Source: Chrysomallon squamiferum (Eukaryota; Animalia; Mollusca). From it: a DNA stretch of 64,000 nucleotides. The DNA is taken from assembly GCA_012295275.1 (NCBI GenBank), contig CM022676.1:12958001-13022000 (forward strand), read 5' to 3'. Below are positions 733 to 34,110 of this stretch, piece by piece. A model generated the notes under the pieces. It was given only the letters and a program-made list of their open reading frames with translations. It was not told the DNA's origin and made no database searches. Each line of letters opens with the position of its first letter. The first letter of the stretch is position 1. A program made the translations under genes and the position numbers.

Positions 733-1326
733 GTAAGTTTCATTCATTTATTTTTTTATTTGGTTATTCATTTATTTATTTATTCATTTGTATTATTCAG
801 ATTTATGCCGGTTAGAGCTGGTTATTATTATTATTATTATTATTATTTAGTTATTCATCTTGTTTATTTATTTCTATTATTTTTTATTTTAGTCTTGACA
901 AGAATGAGATTTTTATACCTTAACCGAGATAGAAGTAGACGCTTTATTACAGTGAGAGCGCTGAAGTAATAACGTGACCGAGTAAGATAACCTAGATAGA
1001 CTGGCTATAACTTGAAAGAAACAAAGTAAATCACAACATACACTATGGCGATAGCGGGATACATACTTGTTTCTGCTTCGATTGTTGGCTGTTGTTTAGG
1101 TAAGTTTTATTGTTACTATTTAATTCATACATAGAAAGAAATATGTTAGATATTACCGATAAAAACTGTGTACTGAAAAGTTATTCAGTCTGTGCCCTGG
1201 TTAAAACTAGTTTGGTGTATATTATTTAAACTGCACGTCGTCTCTGTGAAAAGTGAATGAATCGGACTATGAAGTCCCATAAACTGTAAGGAACGTTAAA
1301 CATATCAGATTTGCGACGTATATTTT

Positions 1327-2715: not shown

Positions 2716-5700
2716 GAAAAAAAATAAAAAAAAACTCTATTTAATGTTTTCAAATCTCCATTTTTTTTTTTTTAAATGTATTCATTTATTATTTAATTTT
2801 TTTTCCGTACAGGTGTTTCACTGAAGATATCTGGTTCTTTGTCTTATGCAGTGTTCAATGAGAAATTTACATTTACTTGTTCTGTGTCACAGGCTGCTGG
2901 TCTTAGTGACCTGGCACTATTTTATAAAATAAAAGAAGGAAAACAGATTCAAATGGGTGCTTTACGACAGACTGTTGATACTTGTTCTTTATTCGGTCGT
3001 ACTCCTGGCTACACTCCAGTGTGTGGAGAAGGGACAGACGCTGGATCATCAAGTGTAAAGAACTACACACTGACCATAAACAGAGCTTCAGCTGATGATG
3101 AAGCACTCTGGTGGTGTCAACTGTTTCCAGCTTTAAAGAAGAGCAACAGTTTTACTTTACCTGTTTACTGTAAGTAATTATCATACTAATTAATCATTTT
3201 AAAAGTACAATGTTAAACATTAAACTAAATAAAATGATATTAATTTGTGTGCGTGTAACATCAAGTAAAATTACATTTCCATACGTAGACTGTAGATAAC
3301 GTTTATTAAATACTATTCTAATTTTATTATTTTAGATGGTCCAGACTCTGTTACACTCAGTTTAACATCACCTGTTGCAGTGGTAGAAGGACACAGTCTC
3401 AGTGTTGACTGTGTTGCTGTGTGTAAGCCAAGCTGTTCCTACTCGTGGAAGCTGGGAAATGATGAACTCACATCAAACTCTCAACTGAGACTGACAAACA
3501 TCAGCAGGAATGAAGCAGGAAATGTTTACACGTGTACAGTGACAAACTCTGAAACAAAACAGTCTGAAAGTAACACTCTAACACTGACTGTCTTCTGTGA
3601 GTTACTCAGATTTTTCTTTGATATTATTGACATCGTTAAAATTTAACAGATAGCATTTAAATCAGTATAAGTCTAAAACAAAAGAGACAAAAAGTAACCA
3701 GTTCACACTGACAGCTTATTGTGAGCTATATTTTTAAATATTATTTAGTTTGTATTAAAATATCTATTTAATTTTGAGTCTCGTTTTCACTAGTATTAAA
3801 TTACAGTAACAACACCAAAACAAAACAGTCTGAAAGAAACAACTTCAGACTGACAATTTACTTTGAGTTATTCAAGTTTCATTGCAAAACATGAATGTTT
3901 AATAGTATTTACCTCTAATTAACTGAACTTAATGGAGTATTGATTTTAATCTCTTCTTGTTTTAAATTTAAATGCAAAGCTTAGTTAATTGTTACAATAT
4001 TAGACTCAATAATTTCTGTAATACATAACAGTGCTTTTGTCACATTTATTATTATTATTAGTAGTAGTAGTATTAGTATTAGTATTAGTAGTAGTAGTAG
4101 CAGCAGTAGTAGTAGTAGTATGTTTTGTTTTTGTCACAGTTAAATATTCTTGAATTTTGTTTAATAGTGTAAATTACGTATTTCAAAAAGTTATAAATTA
4201 TAGACTAGGAATAAACATACGTAATATTAAGTATAAGAAAAAAGTGGAACAACGTGAATAAGAAACCTTATGATGGGAATGCTAATCATAATTACATGAA
4301 GATAAGAAAAGTATACATAATTGGAACAAAAATAAAACGAATAAATTAAATATGCTTAAGAGAGATCTAATCAGAAGATATTAATTAACTTCATTAAATA
4401 AGCAGCAATGAGAAGAACAATATTTTTGTGATTAAGTAATAAATTTAATTGTTATATTTTATTTAGTTTTTTTCTTTATATACTTTTATATTAATAATTA
4501 ACCAATTAATAAATTATTTGTCTTGTTTATGACATCAGATAAATATATGTGTTTTTGGTGCAAATGAAAATATTCCCAATCTCTTACTGCTTTCAACAAA
4601 ACAGTCGCCTTCCAACATTCATAAAAACAGTCTACAGTTATGTCAAGAGCAGTAAGAAGAAAATCACAGAAATCAGACGTGATATTGCTCGTACGAGTTT
4701 ATGCCGAAACTATAATACATTTTGCAAACGTAAAGTGTAACAAATTACTGATTTGCTCTTTCATTTCCAGATCCACCGAGTTCATCTCCAGTTGTTTCGG
4801 GAACAACGTTTCCTGTGTTTGAGGGTGACACTGTCACACTGGACTGTTCTACGACTGGTGGAAACCCGAAACCAAATCTGAACTGGATATGTTATAATCC
4901 TGTACACTGCTCTGACAGAGAAGAAACCAGAACGTGTACAATATCTTTCATAGCTAACAGGACTCAGAATAACAAAGTGTGTGAGTGTATTTCTAGTTGG
5001 AAGTATGGCGTCTACAACTGTGGAAAAAGCAGAAGCTTGACTATTTATTGTAAGTGAATTTTATATTGTTTGTAATTGATACACATATCAATATATATTA
5101 CTGGCTAAGTTCAGAATGTTCAGTCGTTGGTTATTGTTGTGGATTAAAATACATAAATACATGCAATTCAACGATTACAACTTGAAATATTTACGTGTAA
5201 AAACAAATATTGTAAGTTAATCTTGAATATCTACTTCAACTCGGTGTTTAGTGTTAGCCATACTTCATGATAAATATATACTTCAATGCATTTGTTTACA
5301 GTAAGATATACTTAATCCTAAATATATATTTCAACTGAATGTTTATTGTAAGTTATTCTTCAAGTTAAATACCTACTTCAAGGTTGTATATATATATTTC
5401 AATTCATACTTAAATATATACTTCAGCTGAACGTTTACTGTAAGTTGTATATCAAGTTAGATATCTACAAGTTAGATATCTACATAACTGCACTGTTTAC
5501 TGAAAGTTATACTTCAACTTCAATATTTACATCATTGAGTATTTACCTTGAGTTATACTTCATGTTAAATATATACTTCATTACATACTTCAGTTCAAAT
5601 TTTGTTATCCTTAAAATTAGATATATACTTTATTGTACTTCAGCTTTAAAATCTACTTCACTTCAATGATCAGTACAAGTTATACTTCAGATTGAATATC

Positions 5701-8700
5701 TATTTCAATACATGATCGGTGTAAGTTATTCTCAAACTCATGTTCACTATAAGTTGCAGTTCAGATTGAATATTAACTTAAGCTCAGTGTTTTCTGTAAA
5801 TTATCTTCATGATTATTCGTCTCCTTCAGTCTAACTATAAATTGTTACAGGTGTTGTTCAATCTCCAATTGTTATTTAATTGTTGTTTTTGTTTTACCAA
5901 AGTACTGTTTCAGTCATGTGCTTTTCCTGTAAATAATTGTCTCAGTAATGTATTGTTAAAATGTCTTGTGTACGTTACTTTGTTTATATTTTGTTTAGAT
6001 TATCCTAGAATTACAATATCTTTATCACAATCAAATCCTGTAAAGGAAGGTTATGATTTGACCTTGACCTGCACACCAGACAGCAACCCCAGCTCTGTTC
6101 AACTCAAGTGGAAATTTGAGGGAGATATTCAAGTAAATAATGGAATACTAGACTTGAAAAACCTCAGTAGAGATAATTCTGGCAGTTACACATGCGAAGC
6201 AAATGTAAAAGCCAGTATCCATGGAGATCTGTTGAACTCGTCTGAAACTAAAGTTAATGTCAATTGTAAGTCTTGCCTTAACATTGTCACTGTAATATAA
6301 TTACTGCAGTTATATGAATAACTGAGATATTGAGATTTTAAGTTGTAAGAGAAGGCAATATCTGAAATGTCTAATTTTTTTAAAATTAATTAAATTACAG
6401 AAAAACTTTATCTGTATTTTACTTATTTCAGATGCTCCTGATGTCAGCTTCCCATCTGAAAATTTAACAGAAAACATGTTACTAAAAATAAACTGTTCTG
6501 CTGATGGTCGTCCTGACAACATGAACTTCTCAGATTTCAAACATTACTGGAATGACGTGCTTGTTAGAAAAGTGACAGGCAGACATGTTGGACGTAACAA
6601 ATACAGTTTGATGTTTGTTTCTGCTTCGTATCAGGACAGTGGAACATACCAGTGTAGTGTGCACAACGGGATTCCTGACAGAAGTGGAACTTTGGAACAG
6701 ACTGGCTACAGTGTTGTTTATGTTAAAGGTAAAAGAAAGGATTAATTATTATGTTTCATGTAATTTTTAGAGGTATTTAAAAATATAATTTCTAGATATG
6801 CTGGTAGAATATAATTGAATAGTATTGAGTTTTATTCAAGATAAATTTTAAACTTTTTATTGATAGATTTTAGCATAATTTTCTTTTTCATTTATGTAAA
6901 CACTCACCACAACTTATCTACAGATTCTGTTCTCCATTATACACAATCAATTCGAATTTAAAACGTTTAAGTAAATGAAAAGAGATATGCTTAACATAAA
7001 TGTTGCATTTGTGACAAGGATTTTTATCTACGTTTATTAGTCACTTGTATTTTGGTCTTTTTGTTGCAAGCAAACTTATTCTGAACTTATTCTAAACATG
7101 TACGATATTTCTTCATGTAGATATTGTGACAACTGTATGACTTTTGGGGTATTCTAGCATTTTGTCTGATCCTCTGAGATTCCTATCAAATAATAAGCAA
7201 TAAGATCTCAGAAAAGAACAGTTTAGAAATATTAGTCAAGCAGTTTCTAAGATGAGTTGCTGATCAATTGATTTTTTTATAAACGGAAAAACTGGTATAT
7301 TTCATGATTTCTGTTATAATTTATGTTAGATTAACATAATTATTTGAAAATGATTTTTCATTTCTAAAATATTGATTCAAAAATAAAAAAGTCTTTGTTG
7401 ATTAAAACATGAGAGTCATATATAATAATATAAAAGTATCAGTGAAAAGCAAATTTTTCCTTTTAAATGTATAGCATGTGTTACAGCTCACTTATAATAT
7501 GGATTTACATGTTATTGTTTATATTATAACTAATTATATGAATGTTGTGTCAGTGGTTTAAAACATTATATATATATATATATATTTCATATTTCAGCAA
7601 AACCAAAGATCACTATGGAAACTAATCATGACATTGTGAGAGCTGAAACTGGAAAGCCACTTTTATTAGTAAAAACTGTGTTTTGTGATCCCACTATGAA
7701 CAGTTATACCTGGAAGAAATCTGACAGTGAAACAAGTTTTAATAATATGAATGTTGAGGAGAGAAATGTCACACTGAAAATTCACGGCAAACTGATTAAA
7801 GACTCAGGATACAGAATTTCACTGAAAATCACAAACTTCACACAAGATGACACTGGAACGTACAAACTGACTGTCTGTAATGAAGTTGGATGTTCTCAGT
7901 TTTCTGTGAACCTAACTGGTGTAGGTCCAACTCTTCCTCCTAAAGAGTTCCAAAAAGAAAGAGAATCAACATCAGACACAGTGTTCTTGTCATGGCTACC
8001 TAACTACCCAGGTGGTAATTTCAAACAAAGATTTATACTGCAGTACAAACCACAAAGTGACTCTAACTGGATTACTTGGACAAGTAAATGGTTTGATGAC
8101 TCAACACAAGGACAGAAAATATTTTTTAACATCACCAATCTCAAAGAGAAAACAGTTTATGATGTGAGAATCTCAGCTGAAAACACGAGAACTTCAGATA
8201 ATATGAGCAATTATGTCACCATTCAAGTAACTACAAAAGGTCATTTAACATTTTCTATTAATATTATAATTTTTAAGATAATATTCCACCCACGAAAGAA
8301 ACCCTATATAATTGAAACTTAAATGAATACTTTGATACATGTGTATTCAGTGCAAATGCAGGGTTCGAATTTTACCACAGCACCGATGGTTAATGGCTGC
8401 TTTGCCTCTTTGCTTTTCCAACAATCCCATTGGATGGATTGGCATTACAGACTATACATTGGACATATACCGGTTTCCCTTTCTGACATTGGTCTATCCA
8501 GAAGCTCTAGCTGAGCTGACTTCACGAAACCGATCACTTGGATATTATCTGGTCCTCCCTAATACAGTAACTGCAACGGGCACGAGAAAGTCGTGCAACT
8601 GGTAATAATGACGATTTATCCTTACTTTGCCCACTTAATGCCTTCCTTGGGTGAATAGCTTAGCAACTAGATGAACCTTCCCGATAATCAGTTTCCCGGG

Positions 8701-10053: not shown

Positions 10054-11052
10054 TTTATTTTTATTATTAGTATTATTAAAAAGTTAAATAAATGTTTTCA
10101 TGTCTATTACACAAGAATGAAAAGTTAAGTACTTTATATTTGGTATTCCAATGATAACTGAACATGTATTTTTCCAGACATAATCTTTTATATTTATCTA
10201 TGTTTTTTTATCAATTATATCTTTAGAAGAGCAAAATGGTATTATACTTTACAGTTGTTATTTATCTATTACAGCTTCAGAAGAACAGAGTGGTTCTAGT
10301 TCTCTGCTTGGTGCAGCTGTAGGAGGAGCTGTTGGTTCTGTGACTGTCATTGTTGTCACAGTGACACTGATTGTGTTACTTAGAAGACGTGGACCATTTT
10401 CAAACAAATCTGGTATCTTATTTGACTGGCTTTAAATGTCTGTAAACTAAACAATAACAGTAATTGTTTTGTAAGTTATTTTGTTCTTTCTGAACTCCTC
10501 AATGGGATAATGTATATCTTTCCATTTTTACCTTTCACAATAAGATATAGTAATATCAGATGAAATTATGTAATTTTATTAATATTAGTAGTACTAGTAG
10601 TAGTTGTAGTAGTAGTGACTAATATTGTTTTTTATTACAGCTGTGTGTTTACACAATGGAGAATGTAGTAATGTTTACTCTATCAATTTCTGAATTTTGT
10701 TATCTTTACAGTTATGGAACATCCTAGACCAGTTACAGACCAAACATACGAAGGACTTCAACAACACAGAGAAACTACTGAATACTCAAGAATTGAGATG
10801 TACGAAAATCTGAGACAAACCGGTAAAACAGTTATAACATGTTTTTCGTTATATGAGTAAACCTATCTGTTAACCATAAAGACAAATACAAATGTTATTT
10901 AATTTAATTTTTATTCTTTTAATCAACTGACAGATGCTGGATCTCACACTGTAACAGCTGACCACACGTATGAAGGTCTGCAAGAAAACAGAGAAGAACA
11001 ACAATACACCAAACTGAACCTGTATGAAAATTTGAAGAAAAGTGACAAATGA
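678..11052 (+). CDS. Gene A: type I membrane Ig-superfamily receptor (SP - V-like Ig - 5 further Ig - FN3 - TM - two ITAMs), ~841 aa
   Basis: Exons 678-732 (or 1045-1099), 2813-3169, 3336-3596, 4771-5049, 5999-6265, 6432-6728, 7598-8239, 10275-10412, 10712-10822, 10934-11052. All introns are GT-AG and phase 1; the joined CDS is 2526 nt, open, ending TGA 11050-11052; AATAAA near 11164. Confidence 0.85.
1045..1099 (+). CDS. Alternative leader exon A2, MAIAGYILVSASIVGCCL-G
   Basis: Second 55-nt paralogous ATG exon with intact G|GTAAGT and its own upstream cassette (~955-1044). Confidence 0.72.
2813..3169 (+). CDS. Gene A V-like Ig exon (V1)
   Basis: 357 nt, AG/GT phase 1; FTFTC...YTLTIN...DDEALWWC pattern; three paralogs downstream. 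Confidence 0.9.
3336..3596 (+). CDS. Gene A Ig exon 2 (C2/I-set like)
   Basis: YGPD...VDC...YSW...LRLTNISRNEAGNVYTC; 261 nt, phase 1. Confidence 0.9.
4771..5049 (+). CDS. Gene A Ig exon 3 (C2-like)
   Basis: EGDTVTLDCSTTGGNPKPNLNW...ANRTQNNKVCEC; 279 nt, phase 1. Confidence 0.9.
5170..5830. repeat. Degenerate ~40-bp minisatellite-like tract, paralogous to 41390-41900
   Basis: Recurring TGTTTA(C/T)TGTAAGTTA..CTTCAAGTTAAATAT.TACTTCAA units; the paralogous spurious ORFs 5445 and 41513 are near-identical. Confidence 0.65.
5999..6265 (+). CDS. Gene A Ig exon 4
   Basis: EGYDLTLTCTPDSNP...W...LDLKNLSRDNSGSYTC; 267 nt, phase 1. Confidence 0.9.
6432..6728 (+). CDS. Gene A Ig exon 5
   Basis: INCSADGRP...YQDSGTYQCSVHNGI; 297 nt, phase 1. 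Confidence 0.9.
7598..8239 (+). CDS. Gene A exon encoding the membrane-proximal Ig domain plus fibronectin type III domain
   Basis: DDTGTYKLTVCNEVG then P..P...VFLSW...FILQY...NLKEKTVYDVRISAEN (FN3 signature); 642 nt; donor GTCATT is weak. Confidence 0.88.
8340..9300 (-). mobile_element. Degenerate Gypsy/Gmr1-like LTR retrotransposon fragment (gag region)
   Basis: Higher GC island; KGKA...AYELQPEDYHLK..ELKK..GLSYREF...LFDK resembles the AYELVPEAYRQKF gag motif of SCAN-related Gypsy elements; boundaries approximate. Confidence 0.6.
10275..10412 (+). CDS. Gene A transmembrane exon
   Basis: ASEEQSGSSSLLGAAVGGAVGSVTVIVVTVTLIVLL-RRR stop-transfer; 138 nt, phase 1; absent from the ORF track. Confidence 0.85.
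10712..10822 (+). CDS. Gene A cytoplasmic ITAM exon 1
   Basis: VMEHPRPVTDQT-YEGL-QQHRETTE-YSRI-EM-YENL-RQT; 111 nt, AG/GT. Confidence 0.85.
10934..11052 (+). CDS. Gene A terminal cytoplasmic ITAM exon 2
   Basis: DAGSHTVTADHT-YEGL-QENREEQQ-YTKL-NL-YENL-KKSDK*. Confidence 0.85.
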
Positions 11053-13802: not shown

Positions 13803-13857
13803 ATGGCGCTGTTGAGATATTTATTTATCTCTCTGCTGATTGTTAGATACAGCACAG
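13803..13857 (+). CDS. Gene B leader exon MALLRYLFISLLIVRYST-G
   Basis: 55 nt, G|GTAAGT, conserved cassette upstream. Confidence 0.8.
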
Positions 13858-14463
13858 GTAAGTTTATTAAACTTTTACACTAGAAAACTCGTTTGACTCT
13901 AACCTGTGCTCAGCGACTCACCACTTGTTATTTTATATCGTATAATTATTGCTTGGTGACACTAGATGGGCATATTCCAGTCTTCCGAATGTTTTACATG
14001 TTTAAAAACTGTATATATATATTTTTCTTCATATATCTCTGTTGTTTCTTCAAAGCCTTTCTCTGCATAGAAAAGAGAAATAATAATCATTATTTGCTAT
14101 TCAACCACTATCAGTATTTAAGTTTATTAATTTATAAAGTAATCTGAGGAGAATAATGCTAGCATGATAAACTGAGATCACTGCCTCCTGTTGGGAGCTT
14201 TCTTAGCACTGGGAACTGTAACAAGACCATATATAACAACTGCAGCCTGGGGTTTATGGGGAACGTTCTCATAAAATAGTAATTGCAAGATATTTTTTTT
14301 ATTTGAAATCTAAATTTTATATATATATATATATATATGTTGTAAAAATATTTTTAATTAATACGAAGTTGAAACAGCATAACAAAACAAAACTAAATCC
14401 TCATACGATCTTTCTTCCTAGGACATACTTGTTTTATTCGTCCTCCTCCTCTTTTTTTTTTTA

Positions 14464-14494
<31 letters not shown>

Positions 14495-14692
14495 CAAATG
14501 AAAAATCTTTCAGAAATTAATTTGACCTAAGACCTAGTAATATCTCATACTTAAATACGAACTGGACCTGATCTATAACGGGTTAAGGGGGAAACGGGAA
14601 AACGTGGCCCGGATGTCTACTGAAGTAGTATTCGTTGGCTTTGCTATTATTTCTAATGAATACAATAATTAATAGCTCATACAGAAGCACTC

Positions 14693-14737
<45 letters not shown>

Positions 14738-16370
14738 GCAACAACAACAACAACAACACATTCAAAAATAATTAAAGAAATAAAGGTGTCACAACACTTC
14801 AAAACTAATTTATGTGGTTATAGCCTAAAAGTTAAATCTAACGTCCTCTTCGAAACCTGACTTTCTTGATTCCTGAACTTGAAATATCCAGGAGCACAAG
14901 GTCTAAATCTGGAAGTCGTTATTTGATATCAATAGTTTTAACAATGAAGTTGTATTATTCATTCTGTGGGCTAAAATATTTGTTATGTTTAATGGATGAC
15001 GTAAGTATGACCGTGACAGAAACTGTTATGGACCTGGATGTGGATCTGTACTCGTCAGTTACCCTTTCACCTCGTCTGTGCAGCCAAACATTAACAACAA
15101 ACAAATTATTTACCACAGTGAACTTACACGCACTAAGATTCCCTCTCATTGATTATACTGTGGACATTATAAATAAATAAAATATTAATAAAATAAATGT
15201 TTTGAATGATTTATAATATTTTCGGCTCAAATTAAGTTTCAACGGATCTGATGTAAGTATACGTGTCCGCCCGTTGCTAAGATTAAACCATTGCAAACTG
15301 TAATTTATTTTTACAAAATTCAGTATATGAAAATAGCATTAGGAAACAGATCTTATAAAAATAAAATTCCTTTATATTAAAGACACTTATTATTAATTTT
15401 CAATTGAAAATTGTACCAGTAGACTTAGTATTTTTGTCTTGACCTTTGTAGCTTCATAATTTCATAGGACGTTTGACCATGTGTATAACACACTTTTCCA
15501 AAAAAGATTTTCCACATCAGCCTGGAGTTGCTGAAACTGTGTTATAAATCTGAATTAAGTACGTAAATATAAATATATATATAAATTATGTACAATTAAA
15601 AAATAAAAGTTTCAGGAAACTGAAATAAAATGCCTTAAATCTATTAATATACATGTACATACAAACTCGAAGTTGTCAGCAAAATAGTTTAATTTTCAGG
15701 AAGTCTGATTTTTCAAAATGAAAATATTTGACGCATTTCCAATGGATGAGTACATTTCATATTTTAAGAAGCGTACACTCTTGCATATTTTGTGAATTAA
15801 TTAAGTAACAAAATCAATAATGATCACACCTCAGATGAATGTGACTTACATATGTTTGAACTTTAAAAAAAAATTAACGTGCTAATCAGAGCAAGCTGTT
15901 GGGATGCAAAATAAAACGACTTAATCAATCACCCATTGTTCTGTAATTACTCAGTGAAACAATACATTGACCATTCCAATGCTCTGAGTTTTCAAAGGCT
16001 AATTTCAGTTAAATCAGGGGTCTCGTAGTCTAGAAAAACTTTGTTATTAGAGGATATTACTTTCACGTCGAGACCTAGAGGTGTCTGAAAGATAGAAAAC
16101 TGAAGTTTCAAAACTGGACTGTTTATGTATTTGTATACATACATAGATAGGTATATATCAGCTGGCAAATATTTTAAGATTATCAAGTTTGTATTGATTG
16201 GTGCTAATTAAAGGACTGTGGAACACATAATAGTTTGATTTTGATTTATCTAAAATGACAAACCACAACTGTATTATAATGTATCACTCTAAACGATGTT
16301 GCTTTTATTTGTTATGTTACTTTATTATTATTACTAATTTTATTTTTATACATTTTTTATTTTTTTTTAT

Positions 16371-16407
<37 letters not shown>

Positions 16408-18176
16408 TTGAAGTTTATATAATCGGCAAGCAGTTGGACCAGTTATGCTAAACACAATACTGTAGTTATGTCCTACCATTGCCTGACTAACAAGACAAAA
16501 AGATTTAGTAATTTCTAAATCTGACGCGAATTTCAAAATTATCCAGGATTTTTCTTCTTCTTTCTTCATCATCATCTTCTTTTTTTTTTGTTGTTGTTTA
16601 GCGCGTTTTAGAAAGACTGACACTTTAATGATTACAATGGTAAAGAGATCATTTCTTTCTGTCTACTTCCCTTAATGCAGAAAGCATGTTGTGATTTCAT
16701 TAAATGGATGATACCAGGCTGGCTGATAAACTTGATACAACTGAGATAGAAGTAGACACTTTATAGCAGAGTGAGAGAGCGCTGTAATAACGTGAGACAA
16801 TAAGTTAACCTAGAGTACAACTCGTGCACCCGTAAGAAACAAGTTCAGTCAAACTATACACAATGGCGCTAATGGGATACTTAATTGCTTCTGTCATTAT
16901 TTATAGAAACAATCTGGATAAGTTATTGAAATTGTTAGTTAGTTGTGTAACATCAGTATATAACTGTAGAAACTTAAGCTGAATCTTTTCGAGATTTTTG
17001 AGACTTTAAGCTACGAATAACCAATGGAGTTTTCACTGAGGACGATATAAGTATGTTGAATTCAGTACTGTGATTTATTGTAGCGTTCTTTTAGTCAATC
17101 TGTTGTAAAGACGATAAACATTTAGAAATAAAACTCTTCTCTGATTTATTTTCAACGTTTTCACTTTAAGCTGATAATTATAACAAAACACAGATTGTTT
17201 TCACTTTGGTTTTCTCATTGTACCAATGATTCGTTTGTGACGAGCGCTAATTTCATCGAGCGAAAATCTCCATTATAAAGAAAGTTTCAATGTTATGTAT
17301 CGTTCCGTGATTTGTTTTTTCAATAAACAGAAACATTCGCGATATTTTTATTTTTTATTTTTTTATTCACAGGTATATCACTGAAGATGTCTGGTTCTTT
17401 GTCTTATGCAGTATTCAATGAAAAATTTACATTTACTTGTACTGTGTCACAGACTGATGGTCTCAGTGACTCAGTAAAATTTTATAAACTGATTGAAAGT
17501 AAAGCAGAACTGAAAGGTTCTCTCTATCAGAATGGTGGTAGTTGTTTTGTATTCGGTCGTACTACTGGCTACACTCCAGTGTGTGGAGAAGGGACAGACG
17601 TTGGATCATCAAGTGTAAAGAACTACACACTGACCATAAACAGAACTTCAACTGATGATGAAACACTCTGGTGGTGTGAACTGAATACAGCTTTAAACAA
17701 GAGCAACAATTTTACTTTACCTGTTTACTGTAAGTAATTATCATATTAACTAAACAGGTATTGGAATTTTAATCAGTTTAAAGGTGCAATGTTAAACATT
17801 ACAATTAAATAACAAACTGAAATTAGTGCGTATGTTTGTGTGTGTGTTTGTTGGTGTGCGTGTGTAACATCAAGTAAAATCACGTATACACACCCACATA
17901 TATACACACATATACAGTATAGATAATTTTTATCTTAATTATAATTTGTTTTATTTTAGACAGTAAATTATAAACAATATATAACTACTATTGAATTCAG
18001 GCCACATGTCAACCTTATAGAGAGAAAATATTGGTGCCGATTCTTACGGTTTTGAAAGATAATTAAAATCTCAGGTCGCGAATTGTTTCATAGCTGTTTA
18101 CGCTGAATCATCAAATATTTCAAAATATCATCGGAGTCTGTGATCTGTTATTAACATCCGGCTGCAATTATTATAG

Positions 18177-18227
<51 letters not shown>

Positions 18228-21200
18228 TAATAATAAAAATATAAACAATGACAAAAGTATTCTTCAATTTTTTTTTCAAATTTATATTTATGTTTTTTGT
18301 AGATGTATCAGTGAATATATCTGGTTCTTTGTCTTATGCAGTGATGAACAAGAAATTTACATTTACTTGTACTGTGATCTTAGAAACCTGATACAGTTTT
18401 ATAAACTAAATAAAACAGAAGGAAAAAAGAAAGTGATGGGTTCTCTCTATCAGACTGGTGGTAGTTGTTCTCTATTCAATCAGGCTACTGGCTACATTCC
18501 AGTCTATGGAGAAGGGACAGACGTTGGATCATCAAGTGTAAAGAACTACACACTGACCATAAACACAACTTCAACTGATGACGAAACACTCTGGTGGTGT
18601 CAACTGAATACAGCTTTAAAGAAGAGCAACAATTTTAATTTATTTGTTTACTGTAATTATGATATTAATCATATAATTATTCGATTTCAGCCATTTTTGA
18701 ACTGCAGTATTATACATTAACATAAAATAACATAATTACGTTAATTTGAACGTGTGTGTCTACACGTGTGTGTGTGTGTGTACACTTTAGATAATTTTCA
18801 TCTTTTATTACTTAGATGGTCCAGACTCTGTTACACTCAGTTCACCTGTTGAAGTGGTAGAAGGACAAAGTCTCAGTGTTGACTGTGTTGCTGTGTGTAA
18901 GCCAAGCTGTTCCTACTCGTGGAGGCTGGGAAATGATGAACTCACATCAAACTCTCAACTGAGACTGACAAACATCAGCAGGAATGAAGCAGGAAATGTT
19001 TACACGTGTACAGTGACAAACTCTGAAACAAAACAGTCTGAAAGTAACACTGTAACACTGACTGTCTTCTGTGAGTTTACTCGTTGTTTTTGTTTTTGTT
19101 GTTTTGGTTTTTTTCTTTAATATTATTTATGTCAAGTTAACTATTTCATTTACAGCATTTACATCAGGAAAGATCTTTAACAAAATAGTAACTAAAAGTA
19201 ACTAACTGACACTGAGCGCTTACAGCGAGTTATTCATTGTTTAGTTTATATTATTATGTAATTTATATGAAATTAGAACAAAAAAATGTTTGAATTTACA
19301 GTAACAAACATTAAAACGAAACATGAAAAAAACCCATTTGAAACTGACAGTTTACTGCGATTCATTCAATTCTTACTTAATATTATCCCAAATTAGCTAC
19401 AGATTTAAAGGAATATTATTTTCAATCTTGTTTTAAATTTCAGTATACAATTTAATTAATAAGATTAGACCATATATTTTGTTTAATAAATGACAGTCCA
19501 TTCTGTCAGATTTCGAATTTTATATTTTCTGTATCTTTGTTATTGTCATAATTAAGGATTCTAGTATCATTCTTCACAGAGTAAATTATGTATTACTTGA
19601 CGGAACCTCATTACTGCCTCTTTGTCAAACTTATTTGTAGCCATAATTTTTATTCTGTCTTGTGAATTATATAATATTCATAAAACACTTATTTTCATAT
19701 GGCCATTTAAAGCAGTATGATTCATACATTTTATACTCAATATATTATTATATTACAGTTCTTATATTAAGCTGTAATGTAGAATCATGTTTATAAATTC
19801 ATATTTTCACGGTTCTTCAATGTTTACCTAATTAATGCCGGAATATGGGAGTAACTACACACCAATTAAATATCAGAAAGTATGCAGACGTCCATGGGCT
19901 GTTTAGAATCTGTATTTTATAATTAGGAGAAGTTTAGTTATTTTATAAACTAAGAAACACTGGGATTAACAAAAGGAAAATAAGCATTTAAAGTTGCAAA
20001 GTAAATTCAGAAGGCTGTTTCCAGACTCAAGACAAAGGATCACTCAGGCAGTGGTAATTATTGTTTAAATGTTTTGTTTTTTTATGTAACATACATATTG
20101 ACTGATAGAAGATAGCCAAGTGTATTTCTGTTGAATTTTTACTATGTTATTCCGTGGTACTTACTTAAGCTTGAAAACTAAGTAAGAAACTAAGATAACG
20201 TATTTTAATAACTAAAAGCTTAGTTAGAAAGTTAGAATAACCAAATGGGCTTAATGAGAATAATATTATCTATCAACGTTATTTGCCTTTTTATCGTGAG
20301 AATCTTACAATTAAATTATATGTTACCGTTGATGCTTAATTTATGTGAAATATATATAACTCGATTTGCTCGTATATGAAATCAGTTTTCTTATTTGAAA
20401 TACCATTAATCCGTTCCACACCCCCCCCCCAAAAAAAATGGTATCCTCCCAAAAGTTACATGGTCGATAGTAATACAGTCTGGAAAGCAGTCAAGCAGTA
20501 AGTAACCTGGGCACCCCTGTTTTGTGAATAATCAACTAGTCTTGGTGGTGGGCAGCATGTGTTCATGGTTACTCAGTTACATGGAGATGTTGCTCGTAAA
20601 CAGGAGAAGATCTTTGAAGCAGACATGTTTACACAGCGGATCCGCAGGGCTATCAGACTAGCTGTACTACCACAAGACAAAATTCAGGACGCATGGATTG
20701 AAACCATGGACTCGACACCAAATGTTCCTCATCCCCAAGAGTTCGGTGACTACGTGGTCGTCAACTGGATTGAAGATGATGCTCCTGGAACAACCATGAG
20801 ACCAATGGGCTACGCACCAACAACAATCTGCATCAATTGCAGCAGAAAGGCAAGACGCCCCTTCAATTCTTAGATGTTGTAGGCCGCCGGTTTACATACC
20901 GCGATCATTTATGAGCAACTCAATAAGACCGATGGCCCCTTTTAAAAATTTGATTCAATAATATCTAGGGTTACCATATTTTTATAAACCAAAGACAGTA
21001 CAAAAGAAATCTATATTCATGTTTTTATTTATTCCTCTTTCCAAGTCAAGTTGATAAAAGCTAAAATATACCTTCAGTCAGGAACGATCTCGCGACCCCC
21101 AGAAAAAAGGCTGGAGACCCCTCTGATGGTCGCGATCCCCAGGTTCAAAAGCTATGCTGTAGGTTATCTACTGAAACTTAAGTGATCAAGTTATCTGGAT

Positions 21201-24200
21201 GAAATAAAATAATTATTTACCTTTCTTTCATTTATTGCCTGTAGACAAAAATACATACAACTATGTGGGATCACACCATTTTGTATCTGGGTAACGGGCA
21301 GATGATTAAGTGACACCAAACCTTGACCTGTGTTGTTATAAACTGTATGACAAATAATCATATGACCCAACTTTTGTTTTGTAACGTGTTTTTAAATAAG
21401 AACAAATGTATTTATAAATCACAAATATTGTATAAAAATAAAATAAAAGAGAATGTAAACAAATAAATTGGTTTTTTGAAGTGTACTTATCTTGGCGATC
21501 GAAACATTTATTTTAACGCCTTTGGCTGGAGTTACAGCCTTTATCGATTCCGTCATGGTATATCTCGTAGAAGTACTACGCTTGTACTGCCTAGCCAAGT
21601 CGACTATATGCACACATCGCTCATGTTTTTCTATGAATTCAAGCTTTAATTCAAGGGACATTATCCGCTTAGTCTTCTCTGCACTGTCCTCTGCACTCAC
21701 TTTCTTAGGAGCCATAGTCTGAAAAAAGACATTTGGCAAAATACAGCACAAAACGCGAGCACAACACAACAGAGATGTTTCCGCGGTGAGGTAACCACGT
21801 GAAGTAAACAAGTGACACGCGGGATCCTGGGCGGATGTTGTGTTTTTTTTCGTTGCGGCAACTAACGGCCGCGTATCTGAAGCTCACTTTAATTCGAATT
21901 TTCGCTCGCAACTCGAAGCAAAAAATCGATATGGCGGCTGCTCGTAACTCGAGGTATCTCTCTCTCAGATGACGCTATTATAGTCTGCTATCGTTTAGAC
22001 GGGACGAGCCAAGTTTAAGATATTATAAATAAAACCAGTCAGACAAGTCACTGTGACAGTTACGTATATTTAAAATTATAAATTACACAGGAGGAATACG
22101 GAGAAGAAAAAACAACAGCAACAAAGAAACATTCAATTTAGAGTAACAAAGAGTTGGAGATTTTATGATGGAAATGTTACTCATATAAANCAAACACTTT
22201 CAAACCTTCATGAAAGCAGTGTAAAGATGACAGCTGTCAGAAGTAATTCTCTTTTATCTTAATTACTAACGTATCAGATGCTTGTAAGAGTTTCTACTGA
22301 AACCAAACATAAGACATGGATTTAATAATTTTGTAACGTAAAGTGTAATATTTTTTCGACATTTCTCGATTTATGAAAACACTTGATGAAAACACTTCTT
22401 TTTTTTTTTTTTGATGAAAACTGAAAATTTGATGAAAATGCTGATTCTCACTTTCATTTAAAATAAAATTATTTTTCAGATCCACCAAGTTCACCTCCAG
22501 TTGTTTCAGGAACAACATTTCCTGTGTTTGAGGGTGACACTGTCACACTGAACTGTTCTACAACTGGTGGGAACCCAAAACCAAATCTGAACTGGACATG
22601 TTATAATCCTGTACACTGCTCTGACAGAGAAGAAACCAGAACATGTACAATATCTTTAATAGCTAACAGGACTCAGAATAACAAAGTGTGTGAGTGTGTT
22701 TCTAGTTGGAAGTATGGCGACTACAACAAGAGGAAAAGTTTAATCATGTTTATTCACTGTAAGTAATTTTTATATAGCTTGTAATTAATACCCATGATTT
22801 TTCTGTTTCTGTTATGGATTATGAATTTGATTTCTCAGATATTTGTTGTACACCTAAATAGTTTAGGAAAAGTAGGTTTCAGTTTTTCACGAAGGATGGG
22901 TGAAAACATCCACTAGAAATTGAACAAGGATTCGCAGTGTGTAATATTTTTCATATTTCCATTTGAACCTCAATATAACTTTTAAAATACTCATGGGTTA
23001 AGACAATAAATCTTGCAAAATAGAAGTTAGCACACACATTTTTGTGTATAGCGTTTTATAGACATTAACATGAAATTAATAATAATATATACATCTCAAA
23101 AAAAAAAACAAAAAAAAAACAGATGTAATTATATTTCTTGTTTATATGAGAAAATGTGAAAGAAAAAGTGAAGAGAAAACAAATCCCCACTTACCTAAAT
23201 TAAAATGAGAATCTTTTAAATAGATCCTCCAAACAGACCAACACTTTCATCAGATCCTGAACAGCCATGGCTAGAAAACACAGGAGGCTCTTTGATTTGT
23301 TCTTTACCTGACAGCGGTAAAGGAAATCCAGCAGCTCAGTTTTACTGGATTAGAAATGGAACCAACATACAACACACAGGATTTAACTTGTCACTGACAC
23401 CTACAAAGGAAGACAATGGAGTGTGGTACAAATGTTCAGCTGGGAATCTCTTCACAGACAGAACTGGGCAACAGAGACCTGAATCTAATTCTCTTCATAC
23501 GAATGTATATTGTATGTTGTTCAAATGTTTCGTATGTTGTTGTTGTTGTGCTGGTGGTGGCTGTGTTTTTCATTGCATTATTATTTTCTCATTAAGTAAA
23601 TAAGTAAATAATGTTGACATAATTACGAAGATATTTGAAAAAATATTTGAATATTTTCTTTTGACATGCTGATGTCATCCTTATAGATAATAAACAGAAA
23701 TAAACATATTATTTCATCTGCCTTTCATAACTGTACATTTCTTCACAATGTATGTTAACTGTAGTTTTCTGTGGAATAATGCAATCTGTGATTTCTGTTT
23801 TCTGTTTGCTCTTAGTTTAAAATGTTTTTTGTATGTTTGCTTTTATTTTTATTACATATAATTTTTTTGTTCAATCTCTGTAGATGCACCCAGAGTGAGA
23901 ATTTTATCAGAGAATCACATCAGAGTTGAACTGGGAAAACTTGTGATACTACGCTGTACAGCTGACAGTAATCCAGACAGTGTTGTATTTGAATGGCGAA
24001 CTGGTACAAAACACCTCACTGACAGTTCTCTGTTTCAAATCTCCTCATTTCAACAGTCAGACCAAGGAGAGTACACGTGTTCAGCAACTTCAAAAACTTC
24101 TTTTAACACTTCAATGTCAGGATCTGCCAGTGTCATTGTTACAGGTAACTTTTTCCTTTTCGTATAACATATTTTACCAAATACCATTACACTTTTTACA

Positions 24201-27200
24201 TCTGTGTCAGAATTAGCCAGTGTCATCCTTTATATGTAGACTTTATTAAAATGTATATACAGGTAACGGACCAATTATCCGGCGTCCTGAAATCCGGAAA
24301 AAACAGTAAACTGGAGGTTTTATCCTGACGCTATTTTCACACTTCACGCGCACGGGTTTTGTACTCACCAGACCGGAACTACTCTTTCAAGCCGCGTGGC
24401 GTTCATTCACCCGCTGGATTTTTTTACGTGTCCAGTCGTCACAATTGTATATCGTCAGTTTTCTTTATGTTTTTAATTTTATAAAAGTTTATACCTAATT
24501 ATTTACGTATTTAGATGCCTCGGTACATACATACGTGAGTGACTGAACTTAAATCTCCAAGTATAATCTAAAGATACATAAACATCATTAACATGTATGA
24601 GGTTCATTTCTATTTGTTTAGATATAAATTATTGATACATTCCTGCAAGACACTTGGGACATTAATATATGGTAAACACTGTAACTGGTTCTTTCTTACG
24701 GAACACAGGACAGTAATGGTCTGCCAGTATTTGTCAGAGCGTGAGATGTCATTAGTGTGACTGTGATGAAAGCTAGTTCAAGAGGGAAGAAAGAAATACG
24801 TTTAGGCCAATTGTCTGTAAAATAGCTACGCTATTGTTATCTATAATGTTTAACTATAATTGTCTATCATGTTGTACAGTCAGACAGAGAATTTAAAAAT
24901 ATATGTATAATCGAAATCGAACTTATGTACTTTGGTATAGATATATAAACACAAACGTGTGTGTGTATGTGTGTGTGTGTTTGTGTGTGTGTGTGTCATT
25001 CCTCACATATAATATTCAAATGTTTTGCTGTTGAAATTGAAACACAACAGAAATAATTGTTTACATTTTAGTTCTTGAATCAGCTCCTGAATGGTGTTAC
25101 TGCACAAATGTGTTAGAAACTTCAGTTGATTTCAAGTGGAAATACAACACAAACAAGTTCACTAGATTCACTGTTGAACAACGCTTGTCTACTGAAGACC
25201 AGTCTACCAGTCTGCAAGTGTCAGACAATAAGACACACGACAAGACTTTTTCTTTACACATTTCTCATCTCAAGTCCAATTCTTCCTACCACTTTAAAAT
25301 TTACTCTTCTGCAAATAAAACTGACAGCCGTTACTGTTTGACTGTTTGTACCACAGGAACAATACCTGTTCGTAAGTAAAGTAATAGACACAGTTTTCGA
25401 TTCTTCATTTAATGGTTGTTTTACAATACTTGTATAAAGGTATAAGGTGAATCTCACATTGTCCAAACTATTTACATTATTTAATAAAAGATCTTTAGAA
25501 GAAAGAATAATAATAAAGCAAATAAATTTCAATAAAATTAAACGTTAATGCGGTCATTGATTTATGTAGTTAAACTTGTTATTATAATTACAGTAGAAGA
25601 ATCTTCGTCCAAGGCAACACTTGGAACTAGAGTAGGAACTGGAATTGGAACTGGAATTGGAACTGGAATTGGAATTGGTCTTGTGGTAGGAATAGTTCTG
25701 ATCTTCGTTGATGTAACAGTTATTCTACTCATCTTGAAGAGAAGAGGTTACACATTCCGAGGTCAGCTAAATTTTATATTCATTCATTAGTTAGTGTTTT
25801 ATTCTTTTGAATATTTCATATTTATTTTATTTAATTGTTTATTCTAGAATTATCTTTCTTTCGTATTTTTGTTTTGTTTCATACTTGTCTATCTGTTTAA
25901 TTTTATACATACATACATATACATAAAAAGAAACAATTATCTATATATATTCTTCTTTTTTTCATTATTTGTATAATTGTTCTGTTCTTTCATCGCTTTT
26001 TAAAATAAATTCAAATTATTTCAAGGCAACAGTACTTTTTTTAGCTTATAAATTAGAATTTTAAAATATATCTTTCAGGTTCAGACAGCAAAAATCAAAA
26101 TGAAATGCAAACGTGAGTACTGTGTTGAAATGTTTCTAAATACTACTATGATAACAGCTATTCAGTGCCTGTTTTCTAAATTACCTGCAGACTTTGTTTT
26201 GTCATAGAAACTTGTATGTATAACGTGCATAACTATATCATATCATTACTTATGTTTAAAGTAAAGTTTGCTGTAAAATTGTATCAGGAATGAAAATATA
26301 TTAACTACTAATAAAATGTCTACACTGTTGCATAACCGAAAAAAATGAGTCTGCTAAGTTTGTGATTGTCCCGTTAATGAAATCCTACTAAGACCAAATA
26401 TACTCCATAAGATACTAGTATTTTATTTATTTATTTATTTAATTTGTATTATTGTTCTTATGTTTGACAGATATCAAGATGTGTCTATGGATTCGGTCCA
26501 GGAAACAGCTGTTCGTTCAGGTAACATTAGATAGCGAATGTTTTGAATATCTTTATTTTATTACTAATTTTATTAGTAAACTTTTCTTTCCATGAAAGCT
26601 GTCTTTTATTATTTAGAACGATTCAAATTGAACTAGATCTTGAAACACAAATCAAGATGGTTGCGGAAATTTAAAATCAGATGCGTGTTTTCCATACACT
26701 AGCGAACATTATATTCAGACTCATGCACTCAGAGAGACAGAGAGTTACTTATAGTCAGGCATACACACATTTTATTCAGCATGAATCAGTAACAATAATG
26801 CAAGGACTTGCAGGTGACATACAAACTGCCTACGTCAAAGCCATTCGTTGTCAACAGACACTGTGTGGAATATAAATCGTCGGTCCACTTTGTCATACAG
26901 AAATTTGTTGAAGTATTCGGTTCTGTGACGAAATAGAAGTTTCCCTGAATAGAGAGATTAATATAATTTCTCCAGGGAAAGTGACTGGCATATCTTCTTA
27001 GTTATTGTTGTTTTTCCGCATGTTATCAACTGGGTTTTTAATGACTAAATATTCTATAGTTTTAAATTTCCACACTCGACAAAATAATGTATGAAACACA
27101 ATAATGTATCAAATTGTGAATTAATTTCTCTATGCTGATCACTGTGTAATCTAAGTAAAATTCGGACATATTTTCGAACATATAAAAAACATATATATGT

Positions 27201-27757
27201 TTGTTTCTTTTTTCGTTTTGTGTTGTTAAATTGAAATTTCAACCAAGACTGAAAGAATATTATTAGATTTGTTGTATATACGATAGAGTTTTAAATTAAA
27301 AGAAACTGCAATGAATTAAATGAATTAAATGTAAGCGCCTAAATATTTTTCTCAATTTCGGTAACAATTTCTGTAACAAATATTTTGTAGAAAATATAAC
27401 TGAATCCAAAAAAAAAAAAAATGTTTTCCGAAATGTATTTAAAGAGTTTATAAAAATATTAATAAATTTATAGAACATTCTCAAATACCTACAACTCAGT
27501 ACGAGTGTCTACAGTCACGTGATGCACCTGCGTATGAAAAGCTGAAGGTGTCTGATAACAGACCGAATTCAGGTAATAGCTTTTATTTAGAATGTATCAC
27601 TTTCATTTATCATATTAAAATTTATCCAACTACGACTAGAATTGGCAATAAATCATTACTGTGTTGAAATGTGTATTAGTAAAGAAAATCTCAAATGTTT
27701 TTATTCCCTATTCGTTATCAGCAGACGTATATACCAATAGTTAATACTAATAATGAC

Positions 27758-27800
<43 letters not shown>

Positions 27801-27983
27801 GTAATAATAATAATAACAATAATTATAATGATAATAGTGTATTTTAGAAAACTCTGTAAGAAATTACGGCTTTCAGAGTTTCTGAAGTTATTTCAATTTA
27901 TTTTTATCCCAAATATTTGTTGTACTTTTTATTTATTTTTTCTTTCTTTCTTTCTAGGCAATGTATATGGAAATACACTGTAA
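13803..27983 (+). CDS. Gene B: type I membrane Ig-superfamily receptor (SP - V-like Ig - 4 further Ig - FN3 - TM - ITAM tail), ~723 aa
   Basis: Exons 13803-13857, 17373-17729, 18816-19070, 22480-22758, 23224-23511, 23884-24144, 25072-25371, 25594-25761, 26079-26112, 26471-26520, 27474-27572, 27958-27983. GT-AG introns; joined CDS 2172 nt, open, provided the pseudo-V at 18303 is skipped. Confidence 0.8.
16863..16917 (+). pseudogene. Leader exon copy with dead splice donor
   Basis: MALMGYLIASVIIYRNNL followed by G|ATAAGT instead of G|GTAAGT. Confidence 0.7.
17373..17729 (+). CDS. Gene B V-like Ig exon (V2)
   Basis: 357 nt paralog of 2813-3169, intact splice sites. Confidence 0.9.
18303..18652 (+). 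pseudogene. Frameshifted V pseudo-exon
   Basis: 350 nt: 13-nt deletion after TCTV giving an early TGA, 6-nt insertion, and Cys->Tyr in PVCG relative to V1/V2. Confidence 0.85.
18816..19070 (+). CDS. Gene B Ig exon 2
   Basis: Near-identical to 3336-3596; 255 nt, phase 1. Confidence 0.9.
20559..20930 (+). mobile_element. MULE-like transposase fragment
   Basis: IRRAIRLAVLPQDKIQDAW...FGDYVVVNWIE resembles the Mutator-like C-terminal region. Confidence 0.5.
21490..21958 (-). mobile_element. Tigger/pogo-like DNA transposon 5' fragment
   Basis: MAPKKVS...MSLELKLEFIEKHE...VDLARQY (CENP-B type HTH) and a terminus-like TACCTCGAGTTACG. Confidence 0.65.
22480..22758 (+). CDS. Gene B Ig exon 3
   Basis: Paralog of 4771-5049; 279 nt, phase 1. 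Confidence 0.9.
23224..23511 (+). CDS. Gene B Ig exon 4
   Basis: PWLENTGGSLIC...GNPAAQFYW...PTKEDNGVWYKC; 288 nt, phase 1. Confidence 0.88.
23884..24144 (+). CDS. Gene B Ig exon 5
   Basis: LRCTADSNP...FEW...SDQGEYTC; 261 nt, phase 1. Confidence 0.88.
25072..25371 (+). CDS. Gene B divergent FN3 exon
   Basis: TSVDFKW...FTVE...HLKSNSSYHFKIYS (L-x-P/S-x-x-x-Y-x-F motif); 300 nt, phase 1. Confidence 0.75.
25594..25761 (+). CDS. Gene B transmembrane exon
   Basis: (GTGI)3-GIGLVVGIVLIFVDVTVILLIL-KRRG; 168 nt, phase 1. Confidence 0.85.
26079..27983 (+). CDS. Gene B cytoplasmic exons (26079-26112, 26471-26520, 27474-27572, 27958-27983)
   Basis: Splice in frame to GSDSKNQNEMQT-YQDV-SMDSVQETAVRSEHSQIPTTQ-YECL-QSRDAPA-YEKL-KVSDNRPNSGNV-YGN-TL*. 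Confidence 0.78.
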
Positions 27984-28016
27984 TTAATTCAACATCCAGA
28001 CATTACTAAGATGAAA

Positions 28017-31814: not shown

Positions 31815-31869
31815 ATGGCGCTGTTGAGATATTTACTTGTTTCTGTTTTGATTGTTAGATATTGTTTCG
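31815..31869 (+). CDS. Unit C leader exon MALLRYLLVSVLIVRYCF-G
   Basis: 55 nt, intact donor, intact upstream cassette. Confidence 0.8.
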
Positions 31870-32692
31870 GTAAGTAGTATTATTATTTTAGCTCATATTT
31901 TAAAACAAACATGTGAGATATTACAAGGAATAAGATTCATGTATAGAAAACGCAAAACCTTCATTCGGTGTCATTCAGGGTTTTGTGTTAAAATTTGACT
32001 TAAGGTTTTATCACAGTGTTTTATTTAACTCAAATTCTTCGATGAACTAAGCTAAAATACATTAATCAGTTAAAGATTTCAATAAATCTCTATTATAAAT
32101 CACTTAACTCCATACCTGTGGTAAAGCGGTGTCAGGGGCGGGGCACACAGTAAGTCATTCATTCGTTATCTAAGCTTCGTGTTAACTGCCACGAGAAATC
32201 ACAGAATACACACATTTCACAGCATCCACTGAGCCATTCACTGCGTGACTGTATCACTGACCGTTCTGTGAGGACCCCAAATCATAGAACGATTTCTTTG
32301 TAGGATTGTTTTCATAATCATGTTCCTTACTTGCATTTGTTTAATGATATCGTCTACGTAGTAAATTAAACAGAATGTTTTCTCTGTGAATGGAAGGTGT
32401 ACTGTTGACTGATATAGATATAGGAAAATAATGTTCCATGTTTTTCCCAAGAAAATTATTAGTATATGGTTACACACACACACGCACACACATACACACA
32501 CACACATAAACACACACATTCACACACACACACATACACCCTACAGCGACACACACTCACATTCACACACACAGACGCACACATATATTGTGGGACGTCA
32601 TAAGCGCGCCGACAAAACCGCGTTACTTTAATGTCAACTAATGAAACAGAGTGGTAGATCTTCCAAAATGCTGTGTGTTTGCATGTGTGTGC

Positions 32693-32725
<33 letters not shown>

Positions 32726-32749
32726 ACTGTGTGTGTGTGTTTGTGTGTG

Positions 32750-33330
32750 TGCATTAGCGGCATAAATGACAACAGTACATCGTCGTTCCATGCTTTTAAT
32801 CAGAGCATTAATCTCAGGAATAGTAATTGCGTTCTATTCCCTATTCACAGCAGTTTCCCGTACCCTACGGCCTCCATATATGACACCTACCATCTGCAAA
32901 CTGAACACAAAACCTGGATTCGTCTGTGAATAATGTCTGATCCCATTGTCTGAGTCGCCAGTGTTGATGCACTCTGGCCCACCTCAGATGTTCCTGAATG
33001 TGACGCACTAACAGAGAAACAGCTACAACAGAGCAACGTGATTCTAACCCAGCATCATGGAGAAGGTTACGGACTGTTTGAGCATGGATTCTAGTGCCTG
33101 TGGTTTGTTGCAAAGTTCGGGCTAAACGTGAAGCACTTTCACACCTGTCTTCCCTTGAAGCAGTTAATCGTGGACTCACATCACGTGGTCGATCTCCACT
33201 TGCCGAGTTTGGTGTACACGTTGTCAGAGTCTGATATGGTACTGTCATTAACACGAAAGTACTGAGCGACGTCGTGTACGCGTTGGCCGGCGTTAAGCCG
33301 TCCCATTGTTTCATGACGTTGAATTTGACG
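32750..33330 (-). mobile_element. Tc1-like transposase fragment
   Basis: QTVRNLLHDAGL...RWARVHQHW...LFTDESRF...DGR. Confidence 0.8.

Positions 33331-34052: not shown

Positions 34053-34110
<58 letters not shown>

Follow-up and report, generated by a model that had tools for sequence, protein, structure and literature searches.

The question raised by this locus is whether two small neighbouring exons, each encoding three closely spaced tyrosines, form the signalling tail of a receptor, and what such a three-tyrosine module would do. The window, i.e. the whole 64,000-nucleotide stretch analysed, is AT-rich animal DNA whose forward strand holds three tandem Ig-FN3 receptor units. The two exons (T1 and T2) are spliced tail exons of a single-chain Ig-FN3-transmembrane receptor, encoded by unit A, and we consider it fairly probable that each three-tyrosine cassette would act as an activating unit.

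Unit A and its tail exons

The model of unit A, obtained by gene modelling and tblastn, comprises ten exons (1045-11052) in an open frame of 841 codons, with AG/GT splice sites throughout and every intron in phase 1. According to Pfam, the order is signal peptide, V-like Ig domain, five further Ig domains, FN3, transmembrane (TM) span, T1 and T2:

1045..1099, + strand: signal-peptide exon (gene model and tblastn)
2813..3169, + strand: N-terminal V-like Ig exon (Pfam V-set E 0.0065, under the cut-off)
3336..3596, + strand: Ig exon 2 (gene model; Pfam Ig_2 E 1.6e-9)
4771..5049, + strand: Ig exon 3, CD80-like C2-set (gene model and Pfam)
5999..6265, + strand: Ig exon 4 (gene model and Pfam)
6432..6728, + strand: Ig exon 5 (gene model and Pfam)
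7598..8239, + strand: Ig 6 + FN3 exon (gene model, Pfam, loose ends of RNA contigs)
10275..10412, + strand: TM exon (gene model; RNA joint to 10712 in runs X1 and X2)
10712..10822, + strand: tail exon T1 (111 nt, AG/GT, phase 1 at both ends; gene model and RNA)
10934..11052, + strand: tail exon T2, last coding exon (AG, phase 1, ends in TGA; gene model and RNA)

The signal-peptide exon at 1045 was picked as the nearest exon with an ATG; a second similar exon begins at 678. The TM span contains no charged residue and is followed by an RRR stop-transfer sequence. The signal-peptide exon and its upstream sequence occur in seven copies (678, 1045, 13803, 16863, 28154, 31815 and 37234), several of which are decayed, and the window also holds three V exons and a broken V copy (18305-18651).

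The earlier note had described two duplicated tail exons with YEGL-x8-YxxI/L followed by YENL, and this is exactly what is encoded at 10712-10822 and 10934-11052. T1 reads YEGL-x8-YSRI-x2-YENL, with the tyrosines (Y1, Y2 and Y3) at 10747, 10783 and 10801, and T2 reads YEGL-x8-YTKL-x2-YENL, with the tyrosines at 10969, 11005 and 11023. Both fit the ITAM consensus D-x-x-Y-x-x-L-x8-Y-x-x-I/L, as given in the accessible text of PMC6994640 and PMC2832619, followed after two residues by Y-E-N, and both pass the spacing test Yxx[L/I]-x6-8(9)-Yxx[L/I] with a spacer of 8. The third site has the pY-x-N core of a Grb2 SH2 (ITT-like) site, described in the available part of PMC4263166, and is YEN or YQN in 10 of the 10 modules compared. 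The module lies in the cytoplasmic tail, in frame behind the TM exon, and the RNA joints agree with this position.

Pfam ITAM (PF02189) is the sole family match for each of the T1, T2 and unit D exons, with scores under the 22.2-bit cut-off (T1, 19.7 bits, E 0.0011; T2, 13.1 bits, E 0.14; D, 17.0 bits), and the three exons match one another at tblastn E-values of 2e-7 to 2e-8. Motif counts alone are weak evidence in such an AT-rich window: the bare ITAM pattern gives 62 six-frame matches, many in microsatellites, against a shuffle mean of 28.9, and a loose three-tyrosine pattern gives 10 against a mean of 2.4 and a maximum of 9 in 100 shuffles. YEGL is found three times (shuffle mean 0.5, maximum 3), each time at the start of a full module. 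We regard the T1/T2 module as real because the YEGL matches open modules, the exons match one another, the frame is open behind the TM exon and the exons are spliced in RNA. Against solved structures, T1 and T2 gave one non-significant match each (E 1.1 and 1.8), and a supposed resemblance between the first half-site and the Ig-beta ITAM was therefore dropped. Given its length of 111 nt and its phase of 1, T1 can be duplicated or skipped in frame.

Small shares of five sequencing runs were found, four of RNA (one study) and one, X5, not of RNA. Four runs (X4 left out) were mapped to 10100-11390 at 90% likeness, yielding few contigs of low depth. The TM>T1 joint is present in two of the three RNA runs mapped (X1 and X2, one contig each), with GT-AG ends at the predicted intron, and the T1>T2 joint in one of the three (X1, one contig, GT-AG), in a contig that equals the window over 70 letters of T2. 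The loose ends before the TM exon are FN3-exon sequence in all three runs (X1, X2 and X3), and the X1 loose end equals window positions 8208-8237. The non-RNA run X5, which covers intron sequence, contains neither the TM>T1 nor the T1>T2 joint. This RNA support is thin, yet it falls on borders predicted beforehand, and splicing-in of the exons, on which the earlier note had made its reading depend, is seen at both joints. Since the TM>T1 contigs differ from the window, they may come from paralogs or alleles. Three more joints with non-canonical ends (X1 and X3) look like paralogs with a different second exon. An extra mini-exon considered at 10641 was rejected, as the RNA contigs join 10412 directly to 10712. 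Other RNA contigs from X1-X3 follow the TM exon to about 10388 (10387-10389) and then continue into other sequence; these are paralogs that share the TM but not the tail.

Paralogous units and conservation of the module

The same strand carries two further units, B and C/D, the latter with a separate tail:

13803..27984, + strand: unit B paralog (open 723-codon model)
27474-27572, + strand: unit B ITAM exon, YECL-x7-YEKL (gene model)
27958-27984, + strand: unit B YGN-site exon, next after the ITAM exon (gene model)
31815..44369, + strand: unit C/D ectodomain, broken paralog of unit A (gene model and tblastn)
47439-47485, + strand: unit D tail, small exon (gene model)
47733-47846, + strand: unit D module exon (114 nt, AG/GT, YEGL-x8-YTKF-x2-YENI)

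Unit B is a chimeric, shuffled paralog with a V-Ig domain, four Ig domains, FN3 and TM, and represents a third tail type, in which a single ITAM is followed by YxN one exon later. Its V, Ig2 and Ig3 exons are 72-95% identical to those of unit A; the membrane-proximal Ig, FN3, TM and tail differ, the TM exon having a GTGI repeat.

Unit C/D has a net loss of 49 nt in its Ig6 exon and a truncated Ig exon at 41182, and neither tblastn, blastn nor a hydrophobicity scan found a unit D TM exon behind its ectodomain. A Tc1-like transposase lies between this ectodomain and the D tail. Transposase-like remnants in or beside the cluster (~45450-46940 on the + strand, 32868-33374 on the - strand, 20532-21883 and 61869-62616) are, judged by eye, presumably Tc1/mariner-like and pogo/Tigger-like.

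The recurrence of the module in unit D, also claimed earlier, holds in that the copy is real, but this copy, in which F occupies the second +3 position and -3 is N, is degenerate and stands behind a broken gene. Because F replaces L/I at the second +3, unit D misses the ITAM consensus as written in the window. At this codon all contigs covering it in X1, X2 and X5 read L, and in RNA run X1 the splice 47485>47733 is seen for a related copy that differs by 12 letters. None of the contigs matches the D exon exactly and none from X4 lies over unit D, which is not proof of silence. Unit D is degenerate and probably not a working gene; the best reading is that it belongs to an expressed subfamily but has itself decayed or been misassembled. 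The D tail is as distant from T1 and T2 (pS 0.5-0.8) as T1 is from T2, and the A and C/D ectodomains are separated by a dS of 0.03-0.25; old tails would thus appear to sit on young ectodomains, an outcome expected of shuffling or conversion.

Outside the window, the Ig 6 + FN3 exon identified four proteins of Gigantopelta aegis, 59-62% identical (4 among 430 candidates), which would place the host among related gastropods. One of them, P0002, has two modules of the form YEGL-x8-YSxL-x2-YQNL and a final YSNL. Its modules are spaced 37 residues apart, as T1 and T2 are, and its Pfam ITAM score, 18.3 bits, is also under the 22.2-bit cut-off. Another, P0084, has one module, so that the copy number is one or two both in the window and in Gigantopelta. 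The two Gigantopelta modules are identical at 21 of 23 positions, T1 and T2 at 13 of 23, and cross pairs at 11-15 of 23. As the Gigantopelta pair is far more alike than T1 and T2, the duplication there is either of separate origin or has been homogenised. When the Gigantopelta tail alone was the query of a word-index search, the sole match among 241 candidates was the query itself.

Four more proteins with the module, all from Haliotis and with one module each, were found by HMMER with P0002 among the best 150 of 812 matches. In these the spacer is 8 or 9, the gap 2 and the third site YENT, which indicates that this site is kept as YxN rather than YxxL and that the third +3 hydrophobe is dispensable. 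The abalone proteins are about 30% identical to the unit A gene, and the four module-bearers do not group with the window and Gigantopelta proteins in a quick tree, so we do not claim one-to-one orthology.

All 10 modules (window, Gigantopelta and Haliotis) contain Y1, Y2, Y3 and N, the homolog modules having been chosen by a pattern that requires these four residues. Thus the tyrosines, whose absence from homologs the earlier note had set against its own proposal, are kept in both genera. D at -3 of Y1 occurs in five of six snail modules (T1, T2 and three of Gigantopelta), the exception being unit D, with N, and is not kept in the four abalone modules.

The suggestion of selection on the motif with a diverging spacer is supported by the comparison of T1 with T2, where the seven Y/+3/N codons have a pN of 0.10 and the remaining codons one of 0.33 (pS 0.69 and 0.44, respectively); the contrast between key and other codons is smaller in pairs with unit D. 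The mapped contigs differ from the window at 17 listed positions, 13 of them inside the T1/T2 modules (nine residue-changing, four silent). Eight of the nine residue-changing letters fall in the spacer and one at Y2+2, leaving none at a Y, +3 or N codon, for which the chance, calculated by hand, is about 0.06. For the V domain, dN/dS between paralogs is nominally 1.08-1.19; as values near 1 are also found in other ectodomain exons against the broken C/D unit, the V domain is not singled out.

Mollusc relatives with two tail types

The family set consisted of the best 150 of 812 HMMER matches to full-length P0002, a query that included the tail and so favoured ITAM-tailed matches. With P0002 and P0004 set aside, 61 relatives among these 150 have a TM span and a tail of 40-450 residues. 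A strict ITAM is present in 18 of the 61 (shuffled mean 0.4, maximum 4), and 7 of these 18 were matched via ectodomain and TM only. The three-tyrosine module is found in 4 of the same 61 and a terminal ITIM-like pair, a pattern defined after inspecting the tails, in 11, while YxN is frequent even in shuffled tails (42 versus 22.4). Thirty representatives were looked up, and the 26 that are named all come from molluscs and have adhesion or 'uncharacterised' names, such as the automatic NCAM-L1-like, syg-2-like, turtle-like and nephrin-like.

In a quick tree of the 61 membrane-proximal regions the ITAM and ITIM tail types interleave, with ITAM/ITIM sisters in Mya (support 99) and in scallops (95). 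The tail labels are pattern-based, those of P0094, P0051 and P0080 being wrong by eye, and their clustering is weak: taken over all groups, 29 of 200 shuffles reached a value as low. Pairs whose ectodomains are alike but whose tail motifs are opposite occur in Mya (P0097/P0098, 50% over 397 aa) and scallop (P0027/P0033, 61% over 370 aa). A paired activating/inhibitory family is therefore likely, 'opposite' referring here to the motifs, and the unit A receptor is likely the activating arm of this fast-evolving mollusc family with ITIM-like members, most probably serving innate immune or self/non-self recognition. Recorded on contigs of equal length within each species, ITAM-type and ITIM-type members are probably on one chromosome in Mya arenaria (P0097, P0098 and P0092) and in Haliotis cracherodii (P0079 and P0047).

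The window itself contains a candidate of the second type:

53502..59177, - strand: tail exons of a convergent gene (family-tail match)

This gene ends in an ITIM-like tyrosine pair, LLYVGIDF ... EYVSIDW (exon 53690-53502); its tail is 74% identical to the Gigantopelta fragment P0158 and matches the inhibitory-type tails of the receptor family. Its ectodomain was not found within the 64-kb window. We consider it a candidate inhibitory partner of unit A. The region 53502-59177 is a run of small tyrosine-bearing exons, of which those at ~58800 and ~58350 look like mutual duplicates.

Signalling model and alternative explanations

In the mechanism we propose, ligand would cluster the receptor through the V-like domain, and a Src-family kinase would phosphorylate Y1 and Y2, which are 12 residues apart, allowing the tandem SH2 domains of Syk (or Shark) to dock. 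The docked Syk would then phosphorylate Y3, which would recruit a Grb2-type adaptor and link the receptor to Ras-ERK or actin effectors. The distance of 6 residues from Y2 to Y3 falls short of the ITAM consensus and speaks for two different partners. As the cassette fills one phase-1 exon, its duplication or loss leaves the frame intact, and signal strength could be tuned by gaining or losing the exon.

The likeness to multi-ITAM CD3-zeta put forward in the earlier note stands as a functional one: in both, a single tail carries at least two ITAMs one after another, CD3-zeta having three. It does not extend to the architecture, since in unit A a single exon covers the three tyrosines and the signalling chain also carries the ligand-binding part, whereas CD3-zeta is a signalling subunit without a ligand-binding ectodomain; we also know of no YxN after each of its ITAMs. 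Among solved structures, no sequence match of T1 or T2 to CD3-zeta was obtained. Classical ITAMs are split over two exons (PMC3528668, in the part available), a feature of the ITAM subunits (CD3-zeta, Ig-alpha/beta, FcR-gamma) that is absent here, where the three tyrosines share one exon. With an unsplit motif and an ectodomain of its own, unit A falls outside the vertebrate ITAM-subunit group; by its motif, it would nevertheless work like an ITAM receptor.

The oyster receptor CgIgR (Crassostrea gigas) is also a single chain with Ig domains, TM and a cytoplasmic ITAM; CgSyk is found in its precipitates, and in haemocytes it drives the phosphorylation of ERK. As CgSyk binds an ITAM receptor, the pathway exists in molluscs (PMC6994640, accessible text). 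Compared by description, CgIgR differs in having five Ig domains and one ITAM, and FN3, an adjoining YxN and a repeated cassette go unmentioned in the accessible text (PMC6994640). The Hydractinia Alr cluster likewise encodes V-set/I-set Ig, FN3-like and TM receptors whose tails bear ITAMs, in part overlapping, or ITIMs, and which were shaped by duplication and exon shuffling (10.1101/2022.03.04.482883 = PMC9546547, as far as available). In contrast to unit A, and again by description, these are cnidarian allorecognition proteins with highly divergent tails, and the available text gives no fixed ITAM+YxN exon cassette (PMC9546547). Teleost G6f-like (PMC3528668) and marsupial CEACAM1-related proteins (PMC2832619) combine an ITAM and a Grb2-type YxN in one tail, and CEACAMs form ITAM/ITIM pairs in clusters (PMC2832619); they have one ITAM and, in the portions seen, no repeated one-exon cassette. 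The likeness of their tails to that of unit A is convergent. In the B-cell receptor, as in our proposal, ITAM-bound Syk phosphorylates a nearby YxN and Grb2 amplifies the signal, but there the ITAM (Ig-alpha/beta) and the IgG-tail ITT are on separate chains according to the accessible part of PMC4263166, whereas in unit A the ITAM and YxN lie within 22 residues of one chain. Hence ITAM-bearing invertebrate Ig receptors (CgIgR, Alr) and ITAM-plus-YxN tails (G6fL, marsupial CEACAMs) are already known. Neither a tandem one-exon ITAM-x2-YxN cassette nor a paired mollusc Ig-FN3 family was found described in the open-access literature searched.

Some observations count against the proposal. In fish G6fL the YxN tyrosine is dispensable in an NFAT reporter (PMC3528668, in the part seen), amphioxus SYK can be inhibitory (PMC13344425, likewise), and the homologs go by adhesion-type names in the databases. 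These names (syg-2-like, nephrin-like, turtle-like, all automatic), together with an Ig(n)-FN3-TM layout in which one C2 domain is CD80-like, would suit an adhesion molecule of the nephrin/SYG-2/sidestep kind. Its tyrosines would bind single-SH2 adaptors that arrange the actin of junctions or synapses, and the agreement with the ITAM would be incidental. True nephrin-type genes are, as far as known, few-copy and conserved, whereas the copies here are tandem, recently duplicated and partly broken, with swapped tails, and identity falls to about 60% with the nearest named snail and about 30% with abalone; the strict ITAM spacing seen in 18 relatives out of 61, where 0.4 would be expected (best 150 of 812), also makes this reading unlikely. 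Alternatively, the tyrosines could be read in another SH2 register, with Y1 serving as a hemITAM on dimers, or with Y1-Y3 or Y3-Y1' (18 and 19 residues apart) engaging an SHP2-type protein, so that the tail would be a scaffold or inhibitory. In the snails, the contexts of Y1 (TYEGLQ) and Y3 (YxN) are indeed the most conserved, while Y2+3 varies between L, I and F, and Y2 of T1 has T at -2, which we take to be an ITSM-like context. But this T is missing from T2, D and the Gigantopelta modules and is altered in one contig variant, the abalones keep Y2 with L/I at +3, the contigs over D read L, and the family has a separate, distinct ITIM-like tail type; we consider this register distinctly improbable.

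A general sorting signal is a tyrosine plus a hydrophobe, and each site fits this pattern, so the YxxL/I repeats could be endocytic or sorting signals of an uptake receptor, with no need for phosphorylation. Sorting would not require the fixed spacing, the acidic -3 or the invariant N at +2, and abalone Y3 has T at +3, making this explanation very improbable. We give hardly any credence to the view that T2 is neutral, left behind by exon duplication in a cluster undergoing decay: the broken unit C/D and the varying module number speak for it, but T1 and T2 keep every Y and N although at least about half of their synonymous sites have diverged, both are spliced, and Gigantopelta has its own two-copy form.

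The activating-tail reading can be extended, more tentatively, to a possible large paired Ig-FN3 immune family of molluscs, like CEACAM/LILR/KIR but independent of them, with a portable one-exon ITAM + Grb2-site cassette kept since the split of vent snail and abalone, shuffled onto near-identical ectodomains and duplicated per lineage to set signal gain. If true, a single chain would do the job of Ig-alpha/beta plus the IgG tail in B cells, and two questions would become testable: does amplification through ITAM-Syk and Grb2 predate, and run parallel to, the antigen receptors of vertebrates, and do molluscs keep the activating and inhibitory receptors of one family in balance when facing microbes? 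Functional mollusc ITAM receptors so far rest, in the sources as accessible, on very few oyster proteins; this locus is a gastropod example of a conserved exon-sized signalling unit and hints at a wide family concealed under adhesion-molecule names.

Two further observations concern individual relatives. The predicted Gigantopelta protein P0001 passes from its TM into transposase-like sequence, probably a gene-model error hiding the true tail. The tails of the relatives P0134 and P0075 contain tyrosine blocks as long internal repeats, present four times in P0134, which suggests that tail-exon duplication recurs across the family.
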